Shown: piece after piece, positions 8,191 to 41,702 of the stretch
Layout: the number at the start of each line of letters is the position of its first letter
Numbering within the stretch: position 1 is the stretch's first letter
DNA from: a virus
Length of the DNA stretch: 41,702 nt
Strand: one strand, 5' to 3'
IMG/VR virus record: IMGVR_UViG_3300034655_000019
Position numbers and translations under genes: made by a program
The notes under the pieces: model-generated
The model's input: the letters and a program-made list of their open reading frames with translations, nothing else
Told to the model about the DNA's origin: nothing
Database searches by the model: none

Positions 8191-8512
8191 GTGATTGCCG
8201 TTGCTGGTAAGTGTCGCTTATATGTTGCCTAAGTGTCTGCTGTTTGCGCCTAAGATTATGAATAAATTCAGCAGGTTAGTTTTAAGTTGCACTTTGAGAA
8301 TGCGTGTTTTAATAAAGGGGTAGGCGAAGCGATAGCGGCCTATTCTGCACAGAAGTCGCTCGGATTCTTGCCCAGGGCGTGCGTCGTGTTTTTATAGAGG
8401 TGTGCTGATTTGAGCATTATTTCGGGTAAACGGCGGTGCCCAGTAGGATCACTACCAAGCGCATAAACCCGCTTAGCAATTTTCCATTAGCGTCATGCGG
8501 TGTAGTATGATG

Positions 8513-8528
8513 CTGTATGTATACACAG
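8513..8528. promoter_or_regulatory. LexA (SOS) box
   Basis: CTGTATGTATACACAG = CTGT-N8-ACAG, 14/16 to CTGTATATATATACAG. Lies immediately after the TATGAT hexamer (8506-8511). Confidence 0.7.
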
Positions 8529-8568
8529 TTTTTAGGTGTGCGCAAACGCGCGCCGGGGAGGCGACACA

Positions 8569-8781
8569 ATGAGCGAGCAGCAGGGAACGACGCAGCGATA
8601 TAACACTAACGTACTGGTAGGCATTAACCAGCGCGATACGCTGCAGAACATTGATGTGATGATGGAATTTATGCAGGTGACCGGCGAAGAGTCGCACGCG
8701 GGCAGCCACATGATTCTAGCCATGGTGCGCGATGCGCTGGGGCATGAGCTGCAGCGCGCGGGCAAGCACGGCCCCCACTAG
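8569..8781 (+). CDS. Small (70 aa) hypothetical protein downstream of the LexA box; candidate SOS-inducible antirepressor
   Basis: ATG 8569 with GGAGG RBS 8 nt upstream. Product MSEQQGTTQRYNTNVLVGINQRDTLQNIDVMMEF...; no family recognised. Confidence 0.55.
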   Translation: MSEQQGTTQRYNTNVLVGINQRDTLQNIDVMMEFMQVTGEESHAGSHMILAMVRDALGHELQRAGKHGPH

Positions 8782-8948
8782 CCCCGCATTCACTCAGGCC
8801 CGGAGCGTTTTGAGAAAATTTTTTTAACACAGTTCGTGTCAAAACGCTTTTGGGATGCTAGGATTGGCAAACAGTGAATTGATGACCACCGCCGGACGGC
8901 GTTGGTTGGAAGGCAAAAAAGACATACAAATTAACTAGATAGACACCC

Positions 8949-8978
8949 AAAAGAAAAGCCCCAGTTGGCGCTGGGGCT
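8949..8978 (-). terminator. Orphan minus-strand rho-independent terminator inside the repA leader
   Basis: AGCCCCAG-ttggcg-CTGGGGCT 8-bp stem; the minus strand continues TTTTCTTTTGGG. No minus-strand CDS feeds it. Confidence 0.6.
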
Positions 8979-9035
8979 TCTCGGATGTTTTGGGCAGCAG
9001 ACTCTTAAGACTGGGCACAAAACCGACTCCCAAGA
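8949..9035 (-). ncRNA. Candidate antisense (CopA-like) countertranscript of the repA leader; 5' end not defined
   Basis: Terminator above plus a second imperfect stem-loop (ACTCTT...AAGAGT, 9000-9037). Only a weak -10-like TTAAAC near 9040-9045 on the minus strand. Confidence 0.3.
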
Positions 9036-9084: not shown

Positions 9085-10050
9085 ATGGATGCTGCAGCAG
9101 AGAACGCGCAGCCCCTCACGTGGGGGCGCGTGCCGTACGAACACCCAGGCAAGTGGTGGGGCACTGGTAACCGGTGTGGCCACGACCCCGCTAAAGGGGA
9201 ATTTGACCGCTATTGCCAACCGCTGAAAAAGGGCAGGCTACCCGCCACCCTGCAGGCGTTGGTAGACGGTGCAAAAGCCTACTACACCAGCCCCGGCTTA
9301 TTACCCACCCTGGCCAATCTGAATGGCAAGGCCAACGCCGATGGCAACCCCCGTTGTAACCGATCCGAGGCCCGCGCCGCTGAGTCGCTGGTGCTTTCTG
9401 CCATCATTCAGTTTACCGAGTTCGCCAGCCTGCGGGTGGGCACCCCGCTAGCCGATGGTGGTTTCAAGCACCGCAGCTGCGCTGAAATTGCCCGCGTGGC
9501 GGGCCTGCTGGCACCCGGCAGCACACCAGAAGCCCCCGAGCCTAGCCAACGCTTTTGGCGCGCCTTCCGGCGCTTGAAGCTGGCTGGCGCGTTCACCGTG
9601 CATTTGCAGCATGAAGTCAAAGCCGACGGCACGAAGCGGGCGCGGCCTGCTGTGAAGCTACTCAACCCGGATTTTCTGCTGGCGCTGGGGCGTGTGGGCT
9701 ACCAGAAGTTTAAGGAGTTCCGCGACTGGTGCAGCAACCGCATTAAGAAAGCCCGCCGTAAGCACCGCGAACAGCACCCCAAGGCGTACGACGCCGCCCA
9801 GGCCCGTAGCCGCCTAGCGATGGCAGGCAGCGGCCCCAGAGCGATGCAGAAGCAGCGCCGGGGTAAGAAGGATCTACCCGACGCCAACGATGAAAAAGAA
9901 CTGCAGCGCCGCTATAACCAAGAGGCAAACGCCTACTTTGCCCAGGTGGTGCGCGATAACCCCGGTGCCAGCCATGCCGAGGTGAACAAGCTGGTGCGCA
10001 TCAAGTACCCGCCGTATGAAGAGTGGCTAGACCGGCAGCGACGTTACTAG
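9085..10050 (+). CDS. repA: Plasmid replication initiator, IncFII RepA-like
   Basis: By-eye colinearity with R100/R1 RepA: SEARAAESLVLSAIIQF..RSCAEIARVAGLL..RFWRAFRRLKLAGAFTV, then a basic C-terminal tail. First ATG in the frame is at 9085. An ori-like region lies directly downstream. Confidence 0.6.
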   Translation: MDAAAENAQPLTWGRVPYEHPGKWWGTGNRCGHDPAKGEFDRYCQPLKKGRLPATLQALVDGAKAYYTSPGLLPTLANLNGKANADGNPRCNRSEARAAESLVLSAIIQFTEFASLRVGTPLADGGFKHRSCAEIARVAGLLAPGSTPEAPEPSQRFWRAFRRLKLAGAFTVHLQHEVKADGTKRARPAVKLLNPDFLLALGRVGYQKFKEFRDWCSNRIKKARRKHREQHPKAYDAAQARSRLAMAGSGPRAMQKQRRGKKDLPDANDEKELQRRYNQEANAYFAQVVRDNPGASHAEVNKLVRIKYPPYEEWLDRQRRY

Positions 10051-10999: not shown

Positions 11000-11272
11000 A
11001 TGCCCCGCCCCAAGCAAATGAACGCCGATGAAGTGGCCACGTGGTTAGCTGTGCTGCTAGATGCTGCCTTTGACCCCGCCCACGATGCCGTAGAACAGCA
11101 AGGCAAGGCCCAACTGCTGGCGCTGGCCAGCGACTTTACCCACTACCCCGACGATTACCCGGACGCCCGCCGGGCTGAATTGCTATTGCGGTGGGTGTCG
11201 ATCTGGCTACCCGGCGAATGGTGGCAGCGGTTGCAGGGCCGGGTAAGAAAGCGGCGTTCACGTGGCGCTTAG
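11000..11272 (+). CDS. Hypothetical protein
   Basis: ATG 11000 with AGGTG 7 nt upstream (the track starts at GTG 10991); 90 aa. Confidence 0.4.
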   Translation: MPRPKQMNADEVATWLAVLLDAAFDPAHDAVEQQGKAQLLALASDFTHYPDDYPDARRAELLLRWVSIWLPGEWWQRLQGRVRKRRSRGA

Positions 11273-11916
11273 TGTGCCTTTTCGCGCATAGCCCGCTTTA
11301 CCTTTTTCACAGTGGTTTCACCGCACCCGGCTAGCTCGCAAATGCGCGCCGTGGTGAACGGTTTGCCTTCACCATCGCGGGCGTTCAATAGCGCTTCAAT
11401 TCGCTGGTGTAGTGCCTTGTTGGGCCGCTTGCCCTGGTACTTGCCTTCCTTCTTTGCTTGCTCTATCCCCTGGCGCTGGCGCGTTCGCCGGTCGTCGTAG
11501 TCTTTGCGGGCTACCGCTGCGAGTACGTCTAGCATCATGGTATTCAGCGCATCGAGCATGCGGGCGGTAAAATCCTCGCCCTGGCTGGGCGTGGCCATGG
11601 CTGCGTAGCTAGTGGGAAGGTCCAGCGACACCACCCGTAACCCTAGCGCCTCAATCTGCCCCCGCAGGTGCCGCCACTCTGCCGCCCCCAGGCGGGAAAG
11701 ACGGTCTACCGATTCTATCAGCAGCACATCACCTTGCTTGGCATCTTCCAGAAGCCTCCTGAGTTCTGGGCGCTGGCTGCTAGCGCCGCTCACATTCTCG
11801 ATATACCAGCTCACTACCTCACGGCGATGTTCAGCGGCGAAGTGTTCTAGCGTGCTGCGTGCCCGCTGGGCGTTCTGTTCTGCCGTGCTGGCGCGTAGGT
11901 ATCCCCTGACGTACAT
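11269..11916 (-). CDS. Serine recombinase (resolvase/invertase family), probable multimer resolvase
   Basis: N-terminal YLRASTAEQ catalytic-Ser motif, DRLSR motif, C-terminal HTH FTTARICELAGCGETTVKKV. Confidence 0.85.
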   Translation of the reverse strand: MYVRGYLRASTAEQNAQRARSTLEHFAAEHRREVVSWYIENVSGASSQRPELRRLLEDAKQGDVLLIESVDRLSRLGAAEWRHLRGQIEALGLRVVSLDLPTSYAAMATPSQGEDFTARMLDALNTMMLDVLAAVARKDYDDRRTRQRQGIEQAKKEGKYQGKRPNKALHQRIEALLNARDGEGKPFTTARICELAGCGETTVKKVKRAMREKAH

Positions 11917-11938
11917 GCGTTCCCCCTGGCGGTGTTTT

Positions 11939-11983
11939 GGGCGTTTTGGGTGGGCAGTTTAGCAGGTGGGCGTTTTGGGTGGG
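11939..11983. repeat. Two perfect 16-bp direct repeats GGGCGTTTTGGGTGGG (11939-11954, 11968-11983) upstream of the resolvase
   Basis: Read directly; a third degenerate copy GGTGTTTTGGG is at 11931-11941. Confidence 0.75.
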
Positions 11984-11996
11984 GGTTTGGCTAAAA

Positions 11997-12014
11997 CGCC
12001 TGATTGATCAGGCG
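11997..12014. repeat. Inverted repeat CGCCTGAT-TG-ATCAGGCG (candidate recombinase site)
   Basis: 8-bp perfect arms, 2-bp centre. Confidence 0.6.
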
Positions 12015-12052
12015 GGCCACCAGTGGGCGCTTAGGGAGTACCTAAAGTGACG

Positions 12053-12090
12053 TGTAGCTAAAAGCTATACGTGTATAGCTTTTAGCTACA
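12053..12090. promoter_or_regulatory. 38-bp near-perfect palindrome (18-bp arms), candidate TA operator
   Basis: TGTAGCTAAAAGCTATAC-GT-GTATAGCTTTTAGCTACA, ends 5 bp before an extended -10. Confidence 0.6.
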
Positions 12091-12095
12091 TGGCG

Positions 12096-12104
12096 TGTTA
12101 TAAT
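12096..12104 (+). promoter_or_regulatory. Extended -10 promoter element TGtTATAAT
   Basis: Perfect TATAAT (12099-12104) preceded by TGt. Confidence 0.55.
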
Positions 12105-12301
12105 CTTATCGTCGTCGCATTCCGTGGCGACTCGAAGGCGAGCTGAACGCGACCTTTCGAACATAAAAAAGGAGAGCAACCCATGCAACCAACTCAACAA
12201 GGCGCTACCGAGCCCATACGATAATCGCCTTGCAGGCAGCAACAAGCTGCTTAGCAAGGCTAAGGAGAGAAACACCCTTAAACAGCGATAGGACATACAT
12301 C

Positions 12302-12607
12302 ATGAAAAGCACAGCTGCTGAGGCAGTGGCTAAGCCACTGGCCCTCAATATGCGTGTTGACCCTAAAAAACGCGCCTTGATCGATAGAGCCGTAGCGGAG
12401 CTGGGGGGAGACCGAACCAGCTTTATAGTTGAAGCCGCCTGTAGACGCGCCGAAGATGTTTTGATGGATCGACGTTACTACATGCTGGATGAAGACGACT
12501 ACGCGTTCTTCGAGCAGGCCATTAACAAGCCTATATCGGAGAGACCGTGTCTACAGAAACTTTTACGAAAAGTCCCTTCATGGGAGTCAGTGCACCCGAA
12601 CGCCTAA
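12302..12607 (+). CDS. DUF1778 RHH antitoxin (TacA/AtaR/KacA type)
   Basis: LNMRVDPKKRALIDRAVAELGGDRTSFIVEAACRRAEDVLMDRR closely parallels TacA; overlaps the toxin gene. Confidence 0.85.
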   Translation: MKSTAAEAVAKPLALNMRVDPKKRALIDRAVAELGGDRTSFIVEAACRRAEDVLMDRRYYMLDEDDYAFFEQAINKPISERPCLQKLLRKVPSWESVHPNA

Positions 12608-13062
12608 CGCAAGAGCATGACTTGTCAGCTTTCGACTGCGATAAGTCTTCACTCAATGGCTTTTTAAAAGAGCGAGCGTTAGAAAATACTGCAACCAAAG
12701 CGACAATTACCTACGTGGTGTGCCGCCCAGGAACAAAGCAAGTGGTCGGCTATTTTAGCGTTTGTCCTGGCGGCGTTGATCGAAACGAATTGCCGGGCAA
12801 ATATAAGAAAAACATGCCGAGCATGGTGCCTGTCATCATTCTAGCGAGGCTTGCAATAGATAATTCTATTAAGGGCAATGGAGTTGGTCAGGATTTATTG
12901 CAGGCCGCGTTACTGATGGCTATTGAAAGCTCTTACCACATGGGTGCAGTGGGTATGATGGTTAATGCTGCCGATGATGCGATAGATTTTTATCTAAAGC
13001 ATGACTTCGACGCTTTCCCAAAAGATCCATCGAAGCTAATCACCTCGCTGAAGCTAGAGTGA
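12580..13062 (+). CDS. GNAT acetyltransferase toxin (TacT/AtaT/KacT type)
   Basis: MGVSAPERLTQEHDLSAFDC..., NMPSMVPVIILARLAIDNSIKGNGVGQDLL, colinear with Salmonella TacT. Start at ATG 12580 rather than GTG 12547. Confidence 0.85.
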   Translation: MGVSAPERLTQEHDLSAFDCDKSSLNGFLKERALENTATKATITYVVCRPGTKQVVGYFSVCPGGVDRNELPGKYKKNMPSMVPVIILARLAIDNSIKGNGVGQDLLQAALLMAIESSYHMGAVGMMVNAADDAIDFYLKHDFDAFPKDPSKLITSLKLE

Positions 13063-14034: not shown

Positions 14035-14277
14035 CTAGCCCTTCCCTTTTTCCCGCTTGTACGCTGCCCAGGCTTCCTTGAGTACGTCCACCATTTGCAT
14101 GTCATGCTCTACGGCAAACGCTTTAAACTCCCGGCGCATTTCAGGATCAACGCGGAAATTCAGCGGCACCTTTTCGCCGCTTTCCGGTTTGCTGGTGTTG
14201 TTGCCCACTACCGGGCCGGGGGTGGCTGCCGTGGGCGGTGCGCCTTTGCTGCTGGGTTTCATGCTTGGCTTTGCCAT
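14035..14277 (-). CDS. Ribbon-helix-helix centromere-binding/regulatory protein (ParG/omega-like)
   Basis: Disordered basic N-terminus, then RHH pattern KVPLNFRVDPEMRREFKAFAVEHDMQMVDVLKEAWAAY. Immediately downstream of parA. Confidence 0.7.
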   Translation of the reverse strand: MAKPSMKPSSKGAPPTAATPGPVVGNNTSKPESGEKVPLNFRVDPEMRREFKAFAVEHDMQMVDVLKEAWAAYKREKGKG

Positions 14278-14298
14278 GGTGTTAGCTCCTGCGTTTTA

Positions 14299-14322
14299 GC
14301 GTGCTAGCGTTATATAACGCTT
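14299..14322. repeat. ATAACGC heptad locus A (GCGTGCTAGCGTTATATAACGC), between parA and the parG-like gene
   Basis: Contains the 14-bp perfect palindrome GCGTTATATAACGC (14307-14320) and the rc of ATAACGCTAGCACGC. Confidence 0.8.
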
Positions 14323-14965
14323 AATTAACAAGCGATTCAAAGCGGTTGATGATGTTTTGTATCAGTTCATCCGCTTGGGCCTTCGGGCCTTTGAATGGGG
14401 TTTCAACAATCGACAGCCCTTTATCTTGGGCTAATACAAACGCGTCGCGCTCGGGTACTTGGCCATCGAGTACAAAATAGGGCGTATGGGCGAGGTAGGC
14501 GCGGGCATCCTGCAGCTGCGTTTTACTCTTGCCCACTTTGCTCAGCGCGATGGCGATGCGCTCAATGGGTACGCCCTCTTGGCCGGTGAGTGTGTTGGCC
14601 AGCCTTACGGTGGGTTCAAGGTCGTCAACGCTTAACGCGGTGGGTAGAACGACGAGATCCGCAAGCCGGGCCACTTCGGCGGTGGCTTTGGTGGCATGGG
14701 GCGCGCCGTCGAAAATCATTAGGTCGTAGGTATCGGCTACCTTTAGAGCGCTGGCCACCGTGCCGAACGTCTCTACGGCCACCTCTGGCGTTACGCCGCT
14801 TTTGAGGCGGCGTTGTAACCAGGTGAAAGAGGTGGATTGGTTAATATCGAGATCCGCTATTTTTACATTCCAGCCCGCAGCGGCGTAGGTGGTGCCCAGC
14901 GCCCGGCTTAGGGTGCTTTTGCTGACGCCGCCCTTTTGGCTAACGAAGGCTATCTTGTGTCCCAT
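14321..14965 (-). CDS. parA: ParA partition ATPase (small type Ib, deviant Walker A)
   Basis: KIAFVSQKGGVSKSTL deviant Walker A; 214 aa without an N-terminal HTH; AAGGGGA RBS. Confidence 0.9.
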   Translation of the reverse strand: MGHKIAFVSQKGGVSKSTLSRALGTTYAAAGWNVKIADLDINQSTSFTWLQRRLKSGVTPEVAVETFGTVASALKVADTYDLMIFDGAPHATKATAEVARLADLVVLPTALSVDDLEPTVRLANTLTGQEGVPIERIAIALSKVGKSKTQLQDARAYLAHTPYFVLDGQVPERDAFVLAQDKGLSIVETPFKGPKAQADELIQNIINRFESLVN

Positions 14966-15171: not shown

Positions 15172-15954
15172 TTACTGTTTGGCGAGTAAGCCGTTGTGGA
15201 TTAGCACTTGCTTGGCTATCGCTTTCCAGTTGGGGCGCTGGCCGATGTGGTGTTGGCCACCGGCTAGCTTGCTGATCCATGCGGTGTAGGGCTGGCCTTC
15301 GCCTACCACCTCTTTTAAAAACGACTGTTGGAAGTCATACCTAAAATCTTCGTATTGGCGCACCTTGGGGCGTAGGGCTTGGAGGCGTTCCATCACCGCC
15401 GGGAAGTCGTCCTGGCTTAAATCTTCGATGCGTTTTAGGCAGTAGTCGGTGCGGACGCCGTTGTAAAACCAGCCGGTGGCGCTTTGGCGCATGCCGTGGA
15501 AGTTGCGAAACACGGCGTTAGCCGCGTTGGTGAGCTGTTCGCGCTGGCGGTGGTCGATGGGCGTAGGGATGGGCTCGGCGGTGGTGGGCTGCATCGCGCC
15601 TTTGACGCGGAAATAGCTTTTGACGAGCTGGCGCTGCACTTGCCATGCGAGGTCGTCGGTAAACGATTTGACCAGCATAAGGTAGCCGGTTTCGGTCACT
15701 AGGTTGGTTGCCCGCGCCTTGGCTGGGAATAGGTCTGCGTAGCGCGTACGAAATTCGTACGCGCAACTTAATTCGATTGGGTGAAAGTCCTCGCCTTCAA
15801 TCATGTGGCGTTTGTTTTTATGGAAAGTACGTCGCGCTGTTCCTTCTGGCCGCTGGTGTACAGCGTCAATCATGGCGAAGGTAACAACGGGTTCGTTTTG
15901 GTATTCGATATAAGGCAGGGAGGTGCCAGAGATAGAAATGGTGGGTGTGTTCAT
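15172..15954 (-). CDS. ORF6N/KilA-N domain DNA-binding protein (antirepressor-like)
   Basis: EPVVTFAMIDAVHQRPEGTARRTFHKNKRHMIEGEDFHPI...TETGYLMLVKSFTDDLAWQVQRQLVKSYF fits the ORF6N pattern. ATG 15954 with AAGGAAG RBS; the track's upstream extension is rejected. Confidence 0.6.
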   Translation of the reverse strand: MNTPTISISGTSLPYIEYQNEPVVTFAMIDAVHQRPEGTARRTFHKNKRHMIEGEDFHPIELSCAYEFRTRYADLFPAKARATNLVTETGYLMLVKSFTDDLAWQVQRQLVKSYFRVKGAMQPTTAEPIPTPIDHRQREQLTNAANAVFRNFHGMRQSATGWFYNGVRTDYCLKRIEDLSQDDFPAVMERLQALRPKVRQYEDFRYDFQQSFLKEVVGEGQPYTAWISKLAGGQHHIGQRPNWKAIAKQVLIHNGLLAKQ

Positions 15955-16267
15955 TTTGGGGCTTCCTTTGATTTGAGGAAGTCCGCCGCATCGCTTCCAA
16001 CCGATGGTGGCGAACCGTACGCAGGTTGGAAGACCGGCCAAAGGTAACCGGCGCGCCGAAGCGCCCCACGCACGGCCCGCCATAGTCATCATGCGGGCAT
16101 AAAAAAACGCCTACACGATAAAACGGGGCGCTGTGCGCCTTTGGTTGCGGGCTTCCAAACCCGGTCGCTGATTTTGCAGCGACACGGGGAGAGTAGCGCT
16201 AGGGCGGGTGGGCGTCAATGGCTGGCCTCGCTGGCGCGCTTCATCGCGGCTAGGCAGCGGCGGCAGT

Positions 16268-18707: not shown

Positions 18708-19361
18708 TTAGCGTTCGTGCTCGATGATGGCGACGCGGCCGATGATGTTGAGCTGTTGTAGCTGCCCGGTGGTGAGGGTTTCATCCGGGTATTGGTGGCT
18801 GTTTTCGGCGCTCATGGTGTAGCTGCCGTTGATTTCCGGGCGTATCCAGCGCAGCCAAATGCGGTCGCCTACGAGGATGGCGAAGAGGTCGCGCACGGCA
18901 TCGGGCTTGCGGCTCATGTCGATTAGCGCTAAATCGCCCTTGCTGATAACCCCTTCCATGGCGTCATCTTCGGCTTTGACGGTGATAATACTGCTGGGTT
19001 TTAGCCCTTTTTCGGCTAGGTAGTCGTCGCGGTAGGCGGCTACATCGGTGGCGTTTTGCACGGTGATCGAGCCGCCACGGGTTTTAACCGTGGTGCGGTC
19101 TAGCACGACGTAGCTGCTGTCGATCATGCGGTTTGTCCAGCCGACAAAATAGCCGGGGTTGCAGCCAGTTACGTTGCCGATGTCTTCCAATTCTTGATAG
19201 CCGGGCATGCGAATGCCTAGCTCCCAGTTGGTATAACGAGAGCGCACGTAGCCGAGCGCTTCGACTGCGTCGCGGATCGACCACCCTAAGTGGGTGCGCA
19301 CTTCCACTAGTCGCTGTGCGATTAGCTCTTTTTTGTCCTGTCTGTCGCTTTGCTGTGACAT
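18708..19361 (-). CDS. CI-like repressor (XRE HTH + S24/LexA-like domain with apparently substituted catalytic dyad)
   Basis: N-terminal HTH (LGWSIRDAVEALGYVRSRYTNWELG). C-terminus aligns to UmuD/LexA/CI: VKAEDDAMEGVISKGDLALID versus [22 protein letters not shown], and RIWLRWI versus EFTVKKL. Confidence 0.8.
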   Translation of the reverse strand: MSQQSDRQDKKELIAQRLVEVRTHLGWSIRDAVEALGYVRSRYTNWELGIRMPGYQELEDIGNVTGCNPGYFVGWTNRMIDSSYVVLDRTTVKTRGGSITVQNATDVAAYRDDYLAEKGLKPSSIITVKAEDDAMEGVISKGDLALIDMSRKPDAVRDLFAILVGDRIWLRWIRPEINGSYTMSAENSHQYPDETLTTGQLQQLNIIGRVAIIEHER

Positions 19362-23621: not shown

Positions 23622-24890
23622 ATGCCTAAAACCCTCGCTGTTACCCTGTCTGATGCTGCGATTAAGCGGCACCTACCTGACCCTGATATTTTCCAGTTGC
23701 GCGACCCGCGCTACCCGGTGCGGGTGCGCTTTCATGCGAGCCGTGATCGTGCCAGCTGGTACGTGGTGCGCTACGCGGGCGGGCGTGGCCACTGGCACCG
23801 GGTGGGCAATTACCCGGAGTTGACGACCCGCGCTTTGCTGGCGCGTTTGCCTGAGTTGGAGGCCAAGCTGGCGCTTGACCCGGCGGGGCCGGTGGGCGTC
23901 GATGCGTGGGAAACCGTGGCCGACCTGCTGTGTTGGTATCGTGACCGTTCGGCTTCCCATGGCCGTTTATCCGCTACTCGAAAATCATCGATCAAAACCG
24001 CCGTTAATCGTCACTTGCTGCCCCTGTTCGGTGCCCGGCCGCTGGCGGGCATTACCCCGGCGTGTATCGACAGTGGCTTGGTGTGGCCGCTGCAAGAGCA
24101 TTATTCGGTGGCCTATGTGCGCCTGATTTTCGGGGTGATCAAGGCCGCGTTTAAGCAAGCCCGCAAGCTGAACCTGCTGGATACTGACCCCTTCGCTGGG
24201 GTGAATGTGGGTGATTTCATCGACGCAAAAACCCCAGCTAAGGCGGGGGCGCTGACCGCTTCCGATGTGCCTGATCTGATAAGCGCGTTGCGTTCGTGCG
24301 ATCCGCCGGGGTGTTTCCTGCTGTTGTTAATGCTGCTGTTTGGCACCCGTATTAGCGAGACGCGGCTAGCCAAGTGGGGGCAGTTCGATCTCGAAGCGCG
24401 CACGTGGACCATCCCCACCGACAACACAAAATCAAAGCGACAGCACCGCCTGCCGTTAACGCCCATGGCCGTGACGCTGCTAACCCGTTACCGCGCTTAT
24501 CAGCAAGCCAATGGTTACCGGGGAGTGTATTTGTTCCCTGGTGCATCGAAAGGTAAGCCGCTATCCCGTTCAGCCGTGTTTGATCTGGTGGTGAGTGCCA
24601 GTGGTGCGCGTTGGCATTCTCACGATCTGCGTAAGCTCGCCCGTACCACATGGGCTGACCTCGGGGTCGAGTATCTGGCCGGTGAGTTGTTGCTGAACCA
24701 TGCGCTATCGAAGCTCGACCGTACCTACATTCATACCTACGCTGAGCGGCAGATTCTCGATGCGTTGGAGCGCTGGCATACCTGGCTATGTGAGCGCGGT
24801 TTTAGCGTGTTTCTGACCGAGACAGAGCCGAGATTGTCGTTTTATCACAACAGCGACCAGCCCCAGTGGTGGCAAGGGGTGGCGGGGTAA
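23622..24890 (+). CDS. int: Tyrosine integrase, P4-type (DUF4102-like N-terminal arm-binding domain)
   Basis: GTRISETRLAKWGQFD, HDLRKLARTTWADLG, LLNHALSKLDRTYIHTY (R..HxxR..Y catalytic pattern). Confidence 0.85.
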   Translation: MPKTLAVTLSDAAIKRHLPDPDIFQLRDPRYPVRVRFHASRDRASWYVVRYAGGRGHWHRVGNYPELTTRALLARLPELEAKLALDPAGPVGVDAWETVADLLCWYRDRSASHGRLSATRKSSIKTAVNRHLLPLFGARPLAGITPACIDSGLVWPLQEHYSVAYVRLIFGVIKAAFKQARKLNLLDTDPFAGVNVGDFIDAKTPAKAGALTASDVPDLISALRSCDPPGCFLLLLMLLFGTRISETRLAKWGQFDLEARTWTIPTDNTKSKRQHRLPLTPMAVTLLTRYRAYQQANGYRGVYLFPGASKGKPLSRSAVFDLVVSASGARWHSHDLRKLARTTWADLGVEYLAGELLLNHALSKLDRTYIHTYAERQILDALERWHTWLCERGFSVFLTETEPRLSFYHNSDQPQWWQGVAG

Positions 24891-39186: not shown

Positions 39187-39210
39187 GTGCCCGCAATTTG
39201 AGGTGGCCCC

Positions 39211-41702
39211 ATGGCTCAAACCTATAAAACTGGCTTAATCATCACCGGGGATGCCAGTGGTGGCATTCGGGCCATTAAGGCTACCGAGGACGAACTCGGC
39301 AAGCTCAACCAAGGCTTTGACCGCGGCTCACGTCGTAGCCGTCAGTTTAACCAAGACGTTAACGCCACTAGCCAAGGTTTGGCCGTGCTGCGCCGCGCCG
39401 CTGCGCCTATTGCCGGTGCTATTGCGGGCATGTTTGCGGCTAACTCGCTGCAAAACCAGATCAACTGGGCCGACCAGCTGCAGAAAACCAACCTGCGCAT
39501 TGGAGCCAGCACAGAAGCGCTGAGCCAGTACAACTACGTCGCCAGCCTTTCCGGCGTCGAGTTCAACCAGCTGACGACGGCATGGCAGCGCCAAACCCGG
39601 CGTATTGCCGAAGCCGCTGCAGGCACAGGGGTAGCCGTCGCGGCGCTGGATCGCCTCAATCTTAGCGCCCAAGAGCTGAACCAACTGGCCCCAGAAGACC
39701 AGTTCGAGCGCATCGCGGAAGCCATGCAGGGCGTGGAAAACAGCAGTGAGCGCGTGCGCCTTGCCCAGCAGCTTTGGGATAGCGAGGGCGTAAAACTGGT
39801 GCAGATCGTCAACAGTGGCACCGATGCCATTGCTGCCATGCGCGCGGAGGCTGACGCGCTGGGCCTAACGATCAGCCAAGACACCGCCAACGCCATGGCA
39901 AGCTATAACGATGAAGTCGATCGCCTAAAGTTTGCCGCGCAGGGTGTCAGCCAAACGCTGCTTTCTGAGCTAGTGCCTGCGATGACGGCAGGGCTACAAA
40001 ACGTCAATGCGTTTATCCAAGAGGCGGGCGGCGCGGCCAGCATTTTGAATGAAGTGAAAGACGTAGCCGCCATCACCGCCGCTGTGCTGGCGGGCCGTTA
40101 CGCCGCGGCCATGGTGACGGCTAGCCAAGCCACGTTACAGAAGCTAGCCGCTGACCGTGCGGCTGCAGCGCAGTCTGCTCTCAGCATGGAGGCAGAAGCG
40201 GGGCGCGCCGCCATGCAGGCCCGCACAACCGCAGCAGAACTGAACACGGCGGCGGTACGTGCCACCATTGCGGCTCAAGAGGCGGCGCAGGAGCGCGCCG
40301 CAGCAGCGCAAGACGTGCAGCGGTTGCAGCGCCTGCAAGCACAGCTAGCCGCAGAGAAAACCCTGGCCGCCCAGCGCTTAGCCGAACAATCCAATGCCGC
40401 AGGCCGTATGCAGGTGCAGGCGCGCATCAACCAGTTACATACCGCAGAACTGACGGCCACTAACCAGCTAACCGCGGCAACCACCCGGCTCAACCAGGCA
40501 GAAGCCGCCGCCGTATCAACCAAGCGGCTAGCCACTACTGCCAGTATCGAGAAAACCAGAGCGGATACTGCCGCCACTGCCGCCGTGGGCCGCTACACTG
40601 CTGCAACGCATGCGACCACCAATGCCAATACGCTGCTGGCCGCTTCTGGGCGCGCTGCATCGAGTGCGCTGGCGCTGGTGGGTGGGCCGCTGGGTCTTCT
40701 AGTCGGTGCAGGTGGCTTGTTGTATGCCTTCCGTGAGGAGATTGGGCTGGTTCGTCAAGCGGTCGAGCCGACGACACGGCGTATCGACAACCTGACCGAT
40801 GCCATCAACCGTAACAGCGTGGCAGCGGTTGAAGCGGGTATCGTTAACCTGTCGGCTGAGTATTTCACGCTAGGGCAGCGTGCAGCGGCGACAACGGCTC
40901 AGATTGAGCGGCTAAACGCTGCTCAAGAGAATGACCGCCAAGGCGCTCAGGCCCGCTTGCAAAACAACATGCGTTTGCGCGACTTGCGCGAAGAACTAGC
41001 GCAGATTGTCGCCGAGCAGGAAGCGGCGGGCGAAGCGTCTACACGCCTGCGTGAAACGCTGGAAGGGCTAGGCGAGACAGCGGTTCCTGCTACCAGCTCA
41101 TTAACGGATTTAGGCGACACCACCCGCGAAGCCGCCAAACAAACCACCACGCTCGCCAACAGCTACGAAAACCTGCTCGACCGCATCCAGCCCAACCGTC
41201 GCGCCGCACGGCAGTACGCGCAGGATGTGGGCACGCTGAACCTAGCCCTGGCCACGGGCCGCATGACCACCGTGCAGTACATGCAGGCCATGGGCATGCT
41301 GCAGGAGTCGTTTCAGGCGGCGCAGCGGGAAACAGAAAACACCGCTAATGCCTCAGAAGACGCCAGCCAGCGCATCGCCAACAGCTTCCTCAGCTGGGAA
41401 ACCGTCGCGGATAACACGCTGCGCCGTATTGATGATTCCGGCCAAAGCTTGTGGCTTGGCTTGATCGATGGTTCTGAAAGTGCGCTCGATACTGTGAAGC
41501 GGGGCTTCCAGCAAACGCTGGCAGAAATCGCCCACATGCTCACCACGCAAAAACTGACCTTCCAAGTCGCGGGCATGATGGGGCTAGACACCACCGGCAT
41601 GCCCGGCGGCGGCGGCTTCAATCTTGGCTCGCTAGGTTCGCTCTACAGCAGCGCAACGAAATTGCCCTACGTGGGCGATGCCATTAGTGGGGTGGGCAGC
41701 GC
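39211..41702 (+). CDS. Tail tape measure protein, N-terminal part (continues at 1..2423); absent from the supplied ORF track because no stop precedes the window end
   Basis: ATG 39211 after GAGGTGG. Own translation: MAQTYKTGLIITGDASGGIRAIKATEDELGKLNQ...LSAQELNQLAPEDQFERIAEAMQGVENSSERVRLAQQLWDSEGVKLV (lambda-family TMP N-terminal motif). Open to the window end. Confidence 0.9.
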   Translation, partial: MAQTYKTGLIITGDASGGIRAIKATEDELGKLNQGFDRGSRRSRQFNQDVNATSQGLAVLRRAAAPIAGAIAGMFAANSLQNQINWADQLQKTNLRIGASTEALSQYNYVASLSGVEFNQLTTAWQRQTRRIAEAAAGTGVAVAALDRLNLSAQELNQLAPEDQFERIAEAMQGVENSSERVRLAQQLWDSEGVKLVQIVNSGTDAIAAMRAEADALGLTISQDTANAMASYNDEVDRLKFAAQGVSQTLLSELVPAMTAGLQNVNAFIQEAGGAASILNEVKDVAAITAAVLAGRYAAAMVTASQATLQKLAADRAAAAQSALSMEAEAGRAAMQARTTAAELNTAAVRATIAAQEAAQERAAAAQDVQRLQRLQAQLAAEKTLAAQRLAEQSNAAGRMQVQARINQLHTAELTATNQLTAATTRLNQAEAAAVSTKRLATTASIEKTRADTAATAAVGRYTAATHATTNANTLLAASGRAASSALALVGGPLGLLVGAGGLLYAFREEIGLVRQAVEPTTRRIDNLTDAINRNSVAAVEAGIVNLSAEYFTLGQRAAATTAQIERLNAAQENDRQGAQARLQNNMRLRDLREELAQIVAEQEAAGEASTRLRETLEGLGETAVPATSSLTDLGDTTREAAKQTTTLANSYENLLDRIQPNRRAARQYAQDVGTLNLALATGRMTTVQYMQAMGMLQESFQAAQRETENTANASEDASQRIANSFLSWETVADNTLRRIDDSGQSLWLGLIDGSESALDTVKRGFQQTLAEIAHMLTTQKLTFQVAGMMGLDTTGMPGGGGFNLGSLGSLYSSATKLPYVGDAISGVGS
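41576..41702. repeat. Terminal overlap, copy 2 (identical to 1..127)
   Basis: Same 127 nt as the window start; lies inside the tape-measure reading frame. Confidence 0.95.

Follow-up and report, generated by a model that had tools for sequence, protein, structure and literature searches.

The viral record IMGVR_UViG_3300034655_000019 of IMG/VR comprises 41,702 nucleotides (nt) of DNA (the whole stretch that was analysed, called the window in the following) and is, judged on its gene content, a phage-plasmid. We consider here a gene of 70 codons that lies just upstream of the replication gene repA of this element, and which the initial annotation had put forward as a candidate SOS-inducible antirepressor. 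The main finding is that the gene is preceded by a LexA-type operator that holds its place in six lineages of related elements, and that it goes together with a clade of CI-like phage repressors whose apparatus for self-cleavage is predicted to be dead. To the full chain that these observations suggest, namely a LexA-repressed small protein that is induced in the SOS response and acts as antirepressor of a non-cleavable CI, we would assign a probability of about 0.6.

In the proposed switch, host LexA bound to a single operator (8511-8530), which adjoins the −10-like element of a putative promoter, would silence the 70-codon gene. DNA damage would be sensed indirectly, in that RecA* cleaves LexA and a small two-helix protein is then made. 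This protein would bind its cognate repressor without cleaving it and take it off its operators, whereupon lytic development would begin. Three of these elements, the binding of LexA, the SOS induction and the contact of the small protein with its repressor, we infer from the comparisons described below.

The probable LexA operator

The features of the locus that are needed first are the following:

8503..8511, plus strand: two overlapping −10-like hexamers, TAGTAT (8503-8508) and TATGAT (8506-8511), of the putative promoter of the small gene
8511..8530, no strand assigned: candidate LexA (SOS) operator, TG-CTGTATGTATACACAG-TT, with its 16-mer core at 8513-8528
8557..8561, plus strand: Shine-Dalgarno sequence GGAGG, 7 nt 5' of the ATG and invariant in two locus alignments
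8569..8781, plus strand: open reading frame (ORF) of 70 amino acids (aa), the candidate SOS-induced antirepressor, with the family signature NxLV..(D/E)TL..HxG..A(L/V)G

The SOS box of Gammaproteobacteria is a palindrome, CTGT-N8-ACAG, with an AT-rich spacer (PMC8565304). The core CTGTATGTATACACAG agrees with CTGTATATATATACAG at 14 of 16 positions and the 20-mer 8511-8530 agrees with its consensus at 16 of 20, with A or T at six of the eight spacer positions. The initial annotation had described this core at 8513-8528 with TATGAT just upstream of it, and the letters confirm both; the hexamer lies one base 5' of the 16-mer box. It is also correct that the window of 41.7 kilobases (kb) holds no other copy of CTGT-N8-ACAG than CTGTATGTATACACAG. 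The accompanying estimate, that less than one copy would be expected by chance, agrees with the shuffled windows (mean 0.52 per shuffle), but it does not carry over into significance, since at least one match occurs in 39 of 100 shuffles and the bare pattern is thus not significant by itself.

A more discriminating measure is provided by a weighted scan with the 20-mer consensus TACTGTATATATATACAGTA, a check that had been proposed together with the original claim and that was carried out on the window and on 200 shuffles. The operator scores 30 and is a clear outlier, the next-best site in the window scoring 24 and the best of the shuffles 28. With none of the 200 shuffles reaching its score, and with the site found at the same position in every related locus, the operator stands beyond chance.

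The order of box, small ORF and repA was found in six lineages (Halomonas, Salinicola, Pseudomonas, Aeromonas and one unassigned). In the alignment of the Halomonas-type loci, TGTAGTATGATG-CTGTAT..ATACACAG is invariant while both flanks diverge, the block TGTAGTATGATG being unchanged in all of them. Changes within the box are limited to the N8 spacer, with GT replaced by AA in a Halomonas qaidamensis plasmid and C by A in the relative L024. The 13 loci that were fetched first carry just one box each, always equally far from the gene, and the four complete elements examined likewise have exactly one box each.

More distant elements were reached through searches with RepA or with the repressor. 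The carriers among them are contigs of Salinicola salarius and S. corii (RepA 58% identical), the Pseudomonas phage PARCL1pr, for which no paper mentioning it was found in the literature, an unassigned contig of 38.6 kb (L040) whose tail module is P2-like, and a 37-kb 'plasmid' of Aeromonas veronii that is plainly a phage. The DNA upstream of the gene cannot be aligned in Salinicola, PARCL1pr, L040 and A. veronii, and still the box agrees with the consensus at 16-17 of 20 positions. It is followed after 70-85 nt by a ribosome-binding site (RBS) and an ORF of 61-78 aa, and then by repA. Similar −10-like hexamers adjoin the box in Salinicola and PARCL1pr.

The half-sites thus stay constant while the elements' own repressors diverge to ~34% identity (also ~34% in the helix-turn-helix (HTH) domain), and for this reason the factor that binds the operator is most simply a host protein, LexA. 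On the assumption that the LexA of Halomonadaceae uses the CTGT-N8-ACAG motif, the small ORF is, as far as sequence can tell, very probably under LexA control. This part of the earlier interpretation has strong support in silico, from a box that recurs in six lineages and occurs once per complete element; another part, transcriptional read-through into repA, is doubtful and is taken up below.

The small gene and its family

The small gene is flanked by tail genes on its 5' side and by repA on its 3' side, and lies ~10 kb from CI, outside the immunity region. Its GGAGG and the reading frame 8569..8781 are as first described; the distance from the end of the box to the ATG at 8569 is 40 nt, where 41 had been given. 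In Salinicola and L040, GGAGG or AGGAG is present at the equivalent place. An alternative start at GTG 8536 was ruled out, as the RBS precedes the ATG at 8569 and a plasmid relative has a frame-breaking indel upstream of it.

The pairwise ratios of nonsynonymous to synonymous substitution rates (dN/dS) of the small ORF are 0.11-0.27, with an excess of changes at third positions. The AlphaFold model is a two-helix hairpin (helices 13-38 and 41-66) with a disordered N-terminus and a predicted local distance difference test score (pLDDT) of 71.5. On account of the low dN/dS, the conserved RBS and the confident helical hairpin, the 70-codon ORF is by these computed measures a genuine protein-coding gene under purifying selection. 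The motifs NPL(V/I), (D/E)T(L/I), HxG and A(L/V)G are common to the members of the family.

The family is small, with 12 clusters among 5.8 billion proteins and nine representatives among 1.84 billion at full HMMER sensitivity. Scans of the small proteins of the six lineages against Pfam and PHROG gave no match at E ≤ 0.1-1, DinI included, and a sequence-profile search of the PDB returned noise only (ClpA, E 0.3). Foldseek searches of the PDB and BFVD gave generic helical hairpins only (E > 0.5). There was no match of the locus DNA among GenBank phages, and none in a genome-collection scan with the small-protein alignment; a metagenome scan with RepA found duplicates of known alleles only. From these searches, the family is very rare and previously unannotated.

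The CI-like repressor

The proposed target of the small protein is the following:

18708..19361, minus strand: CI-like repressor of 217 aa with HTH and S24 fold, its catalytic apparatus inactivated

The repressor faces a rightward early operon, in the arrangement of a CI/Cro-type immunity region, and its Pfam matches, HTH_3 with 26.2 bits and Peptidase_S24 with 37.9 bits, are both over the cut-offs. Its catalytic dyad was read from domain-only alignments with LexA, lambda CI and UmuD, a full-length alignment of three sequences with MAFFT being too gappy. Ala134 aligns to the nucleophile of LexA, Ser119, and Arg171 to the general base, Lys156, while the Ala-Gly of the scissile position is Gly-Gly in the window repressor and Ser-Asp in a 93%-identical plasmid homologue. 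None of the three marks of an autocleaving S24 protein (Ser nucleophile, Lys base and Ala-Gly bond) is thus found in the alignments of this repressor. With both catalytic residues and the cleavage site gone, self-cleavage stimulated by RecA* is predicted to be unable to inactivate it.

The degenerate S24 dyad, which was part of the original argument, is therefore borne out, and it is a property of a whole clade. Of the 84 database relatives (clusters P0013-P0096), 83 have Arg in the Lys column, within the motif W-x-R-W-I-R-P-E, and the Ser column drifts among S, A, T, G, L and V. The hosts of this K-to-R clade are Halomonas, Aeromonas, Pseudomonas, Shewanella and Endozoicomonas, and its members often sit on contigs of 35-45 kb. 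The repressors of PARCL1pr, of A. veronii and of the type-B elements introduced below fall in the same clade. In the literature we found no description of K-to-R HTH-S24 proteins as pseudo-proteases.

One can speculate, as an unlikely extension of the proposal, that the repressors of the 84 clusters have turned the vestigial cleavage cleft into a receptor for the small protein. The invariant NPL(V/I) would then dock as a pseudo-substrate at the site of the former Ala-Gly loop, and the variable helices would set the allele specificity. If this were true, evolution would have led directly, within the same domain, from autoproteolysis triggered by RecA to antirepression triggered by LexA.

Linkage between the small gene and the repressor

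Each of the four complete elements combines a member of the small-ORF family with a K-to-R repressor and a single LexA box. In the Aeromonas phage AhyVDH1 a RepA-like gene is present and all three are absent. In the repA regions of two conjugative Aeromonas plasmids, whose repA is homologous, there is no member of the family in any frame and no box upstream of repA. This profile of presence and absence indicates that the small gene goes with the phage repressor and not with the replicon.

The same association is seen at the level of alleles. The small ORF occurs as type A (the window and several IMG/VR contigs), type A' (70% identity) and type B (48%), and in every contig that shows both genes A or A' stands with CI-A (93-100% identical) and B with CI-B (41-44%). 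The concordant set consists, for A and A', of the window, three IMG/VR contigs and the H. qaidamensis plasmid and, for B, of two contigs, which differ from each other in ParA and exonuclease. All of these reach both loci; the Salinicola contig L036 stops just before its repressor, which did not come up in the search for the CI family either, and the contigs of the CI clusters P0034 and P0023 stop short of the repA region.

In the small gene, the difference between types A and B falls in the following segment:

8600..8918, no strand assigned: allele-variable cassette of ~320 base pairs, 40-60% identical in nucleotides to type-B elements, comprising the ORF body from about codon 11 and part of the intergenic region, delimited by sliding identity

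Between the window and L024 the identity is 83-100% over most of 8266-8435 and 90-100% over 8452-8600, then falls to ~40-60% over roughly 8600-8918, and is again 90-100% from 8919. On the sliding identity this is a clean cassette replacement that covers the body of the small ORF. Between types A and B, the small ORF is 48% identical, whereas RepA is 85-89% identical and ParA up to 97%.

The claim that the gene encodes an antirepressor has therefore gained indirect support, from the dead dyad of the clade, the co-occurrence with this clade and the joint switching of alleles, while the homology to the antirepressors cited as precedents was not found. On every feature that can be tested in silico (the box, the position outside the immunity region, the small size and a repressor predicted to be non-cleavable), the small gene fits the class of LexA-controlled small antirepressors.

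A number of points weigh against this reading. No known antirepressor resembles the small protein in sequence or fold in the comparisons with Pfam, PHROG, PDB, BFVD and N15, and another protein of the same element, with an ORF6N domain, does match PHROG families labelled 'anti-repressor'. In every case the small gene adjoins repA, with ~10 kb between it and the immunity region. In terms of independent events, the switching of alleles counts for about one A/B exchange plus one A/A' step, and as RepA, too, is a little more similar within types (89 and 92% identity versus 81-89%), linkage alone could contribute to the concordance. Across the six lineages, the divergence of the small ORF correlates at least as well with that of RepA as with that of CI; such pairwise-identity correlations do not separate the two couplings, because the overall phylogeny dominates them. 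As regards the operator, no literature on the LexA or the SOS box of Halomonas was found, and the specificity of LexA in Halomonadaceae is assumed. Finally, a consensus sigma-70 promoter scan of the small-gene region returned no promoter at its thresholds. The candidate −35 element, TTTCCA at 8481-8486, is weak or ambiguous, and with a good −10 but a weak −35 and nothing from the scanner, the promoter of the small gene is a putative one.

Alternative interpretations

The alternative that survives best is that the small protein is an SOS-induced part of the replication module, acting on RepA, on the repA leader or on an antisense control, for example to raise the copy number for lytic replication. 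The features that bear on it are those between the two genes and repA itself:

8836..8864, plus strand: promoter-like element for repA, GTGTCA/TGTCAA with a 16-nt spacer and an extended −10, TGcTAGGAT; putative function
8944..8995 (stem 8953-8982), no strand assigned: conserved hairpin, flanked by an A-tract and a T-rich tract (AAAAGAAAA, TTCTCGGATG)
9085..10050, plus strand: RepA-family replication protein of 321 aa, starting at ATG 9085, with the mechanical ORF call beginning at TTG 8965

That a repA gene follows the small ORF had been stated at the outset and is confirmed: the protein matches phrog_20951, its homologues have 315-334 aa, and the gene matches Aeromonas plasmid genes annotated as 'plasmid replication protein repA'. 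The pattern GTGTCA-N16-TGcTAGGAT is kept in all six lineages in surroundings that have diverged. The hairpin is likewise found in all lineages, by way of compensatory changes in the stem (also at ~2095-2140 in L036, ~3505-3550 in L038 and ~19050-19090 in L040). According to the terminator scan and the folding, its shape on the minus strand is that of a strong intrinsic terminator (−30.1 kcal/mol, z −5.97, followed by UUUUCUUUU), whereas it is a weaker one on the plus strand (−26 kcal/mol, z −2.79). It may terminate a counter-transcript against the repA leader, in a form of copy-number control, or serve as a bidirectional terminator or as an attenuator of plus-strand transcription.

With a conserved extended −10 element and a hairpin ahead of it, repA probably has its own expression signals. 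The suggestion that SOS-driven read-through from the small gene would boost replication is not supported, as the promoter-like element and the hairpin separate the two genes; such read-through is doubtful and not needed.

A replication function would account for the position of the small gene, which is immediately 5' of repA in all six lineages, and for the way its identity tracks that of RepA across lineages, and the conserved hairpin and promoter-like element do suggest an elaborate control of repA at this place. However, the conjugative Aeromonas plasmids and AhyVDH1 have a repA or RepA-like gene without the small ORF or the box, the small ORF drops to 48% between types A and B where RepA remains at 85-89%, and repA seems to have a promoter of its own. 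We therefore regard a role in the replication module as unlikely.

An improbable reading is that the small protein is an SOS-induced accessory factor directed at the host, such as a division inhibitor, a toxin or a modulator of RecA or LexA of the DinI, PsiB or gp7 type. Genes with such functions are common among those that LexA controls in phages, and small helical proteins would fit. The LexA-controlled operon of the Gifsy phages, for instance, is led by dinI homologues (PMC3121763), and N15 carries a LexA box before a umuD homologue. However, neither DinI nor any other Pfam or PHROG family is matched in any lineage, and the small gene co-occurs strictly with one repressor clade. A host-directed protein would be expected to be conserved among elements that share a host, yet the cassette is swapped together with the immunity type.

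It is improbable as well that the real antirepressor is the ORF6N protein mentioned above, with the small protein as its accessory or upstream regulator:

15172..16092, minus strand: ORF6N-domain protein of 306 aa, with a Pfam ORF6N match and matches to seven PHROG anti-repressor families (best E 2.6e-39)

These matches speak for it, as does its conservation in the relatives. However, the anti-repressor label is an annotation by homology, and both the pattern scan and the weighted scan of the window show no LexA box near the gene. It lies in a leftward operon downstream of CI, and would probably be expressed only after derepression. Its identity among the elements, 70-85%, does not follow the CI type.

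That the palindrome is no LexA site at all, and either matches by accident or serves a regulator encoded by the phage, is very improbable: the bare pattern does turn up by chance in 39% of the shuffles and we found no Halomonas LexA data, but 0 of 200 shuffles reach the score of the 20-mer, the site recurs at its position in six lineages, whose flanks are unrelated, and as a single copy per complete genome, and its half-sites are fixed where the phage repressors go down to ~34% identity.

Comparison with known switches

The SOS-antirepressor switch proposed for the window has well-described counterparts, of which N15 is the closest. In N15, the CB repressor is opposed by a LexA-controlled antirepressor, AntC, whose gene is not part of the immunity region (Mardanov and Ravin 2007, as cited in PMC3121763 and PMC11652158), and the repressor is non-proteolytic (PMC10432266). 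In agreement with the latter finding, we note that CB (14110-14718 of N15, L047) has an S24-like C-terminal domain with Gln at both the Ser and the Lys position. N15 is thus like the window element in being a plasmid prophage, in having a non-proteolytic repressor (by sequence, in the case of the window) and in having a LexA-repressed antirepressor gene (in the window, a candidate). The parts are different, however. A hidden Markov model of the small protein gave no match at E ≤ 10 against the six-frame translation of 20000-46375 of N15 (the right arm), and CB has only weak HTH similarity to the window repressor (BLASTP E 0.009). N15 is linear, with a protelomerase and a RepA of 1324 aa, while the window group has the 321-aa RepA and its sequenced relative is circular.

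The antirepressors GfoA, GftA and GfhA of Gifsy-1/-2/-3 are small, are under direct LexA control and bind repressors that are not cleaved, with a specificity that varies with the repressor type (Lemire et al. 2011, PMC3121763). Their genes lie outside the immunity region, as does the small gene of the window. The Gifsy phages differ in being integrated prophages, with the antirepressor as the second gene of the dinI-led operon, in having repressors of 136 aa without the C-terminal S24-type domain (217 aa with an S24 fold in the window), and in showing no sequence relationship to the window protein, which has no PHROG match. Tum of phage 186, a LexA-repressed antirepressor of a non-cleavable CI, follows the same logic as is proposed here; it has 146 aa and a DinI-like second half (PMC3121763), whereas the window protein has 70 aa and no Pfam match. 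Tum and the Gifsy proteins, which the initial annotation had cited, therefore stand as precedents for the mechanism and not for homology, as the small protein is related neither to them (no Pfam or PHROG match) nor to anything in N15.

A further comparison is offered by Qtip of VP882 and the transcription factor-small ORF (TF-smORF) modules of plasmid-like Vibrio phages. These have proteins of 57-79 aa, encoded beside repA or par, which inactivate the cognate cI specifically and non-proteolytically (Silpe et al. 2023, PMC10432266). In these modules, however, the small protein is driven by an adjacent phage transcription factor, independently of SOS, and the cI is autoproteolytic. The window has a LexA box as the input, a catalytically dead repressor (by sequence) and no regulator gene beside the small ORF: the divergent transcription-factor gene that marks a TF-smORF module is absent, the neighbours being tail genes and repA. 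The logic would thus be that of the N15, Gifsy and 186 switches realized with non-homologous parts, and the small protein would be a new family doing a known job.

Other features of the element

The element is marine and temperate, complete or nearly so, with a host in the Halomonadaceae. It has lambda-like terminase, portal, capsid and tail genes, lysis genes, a tyrosine recombinase and, besides RepA, a partition protein:

14321..14965, minus strand: ParA-type partition ATPase (phrog_164, E 1.5e-33; CbiA/ParA Pfam matches in the relatives)

The nearest sequenced relative is the complete circular plasmid of H. qaidamensis (45.9 kb; CP080628, strain XH36), which has the same layout. No host flanks are visible at the ends of the window. 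ORFs run off both ends (39202-41702 and 1-2423) in the tape-measure region, and as they lie in different frames a simple circular join gives no single continuous gene; the junction may lack some sequence, or there may be two genes. The sequenced relative of this element is a plasmid in free circular form, and the tyrosine recombinase ('integrase', 422 aa, 23622-24890) may have the resolution of dimers as its task and not integration; alternatively, the element may switch between the free and the integrated state.

A cargo block at 11269-13062 contains a serine recombinase/resolvase (11269-11916, minus strand) and a TacA-like antitoxin gene (12230-12607) that overlaps a GNAT acetyltransferase gene (12547-13062), the latter two being probably a toxin-antitoxin pair of the TacAT type. 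The block is present only in some relatives (L019, L024), and L040 has YoeB/Phd at the corresponding place. In the H. qaidamensis plasmid (L001, 7081-8762), the LexA module and the tail genes are separated by a pair resembling a diversity-generating retroelement, consisting of a bAvd four-helix-bundle protein and a reverse transcriptase; an ORF for a reverse transcriptase was not seen at the equivalent position of the window. The backbone of RepA, ParA and immunity region is joined to P2-like contractile-tail modules in some relatives and to siphovirus-type tails in the window (the elements concerned being L040, a contig of Logan SRR32584025; L046, A. veronii AP022265; and L037, AhyVDH1). Judged from these layouts, there is extensive modular exchange within this group of phage-plasmids.

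Conclusions

If the proposed switch is confirmed, the known SOS-antirepression switches would be joined by a protein family so far without annotation and by an entire clade of dead S24 repressors, and circular phage-plasmids of marine and halophilic Gammaproteobacteria would be added to the range of the N15-type logic. The natural A and B pairs of repressor and small protein, which occur in similar backgrounds, would be a ready system for studying the specificity of antirepressors and the cross-talk between co-resident prophages. The combination of a single LexA box with an NPL(V/I) small ORF 5' of repA may also serve as an annotation rule, from which SOS inducibility could be predicted within this group of phage-plasmids.

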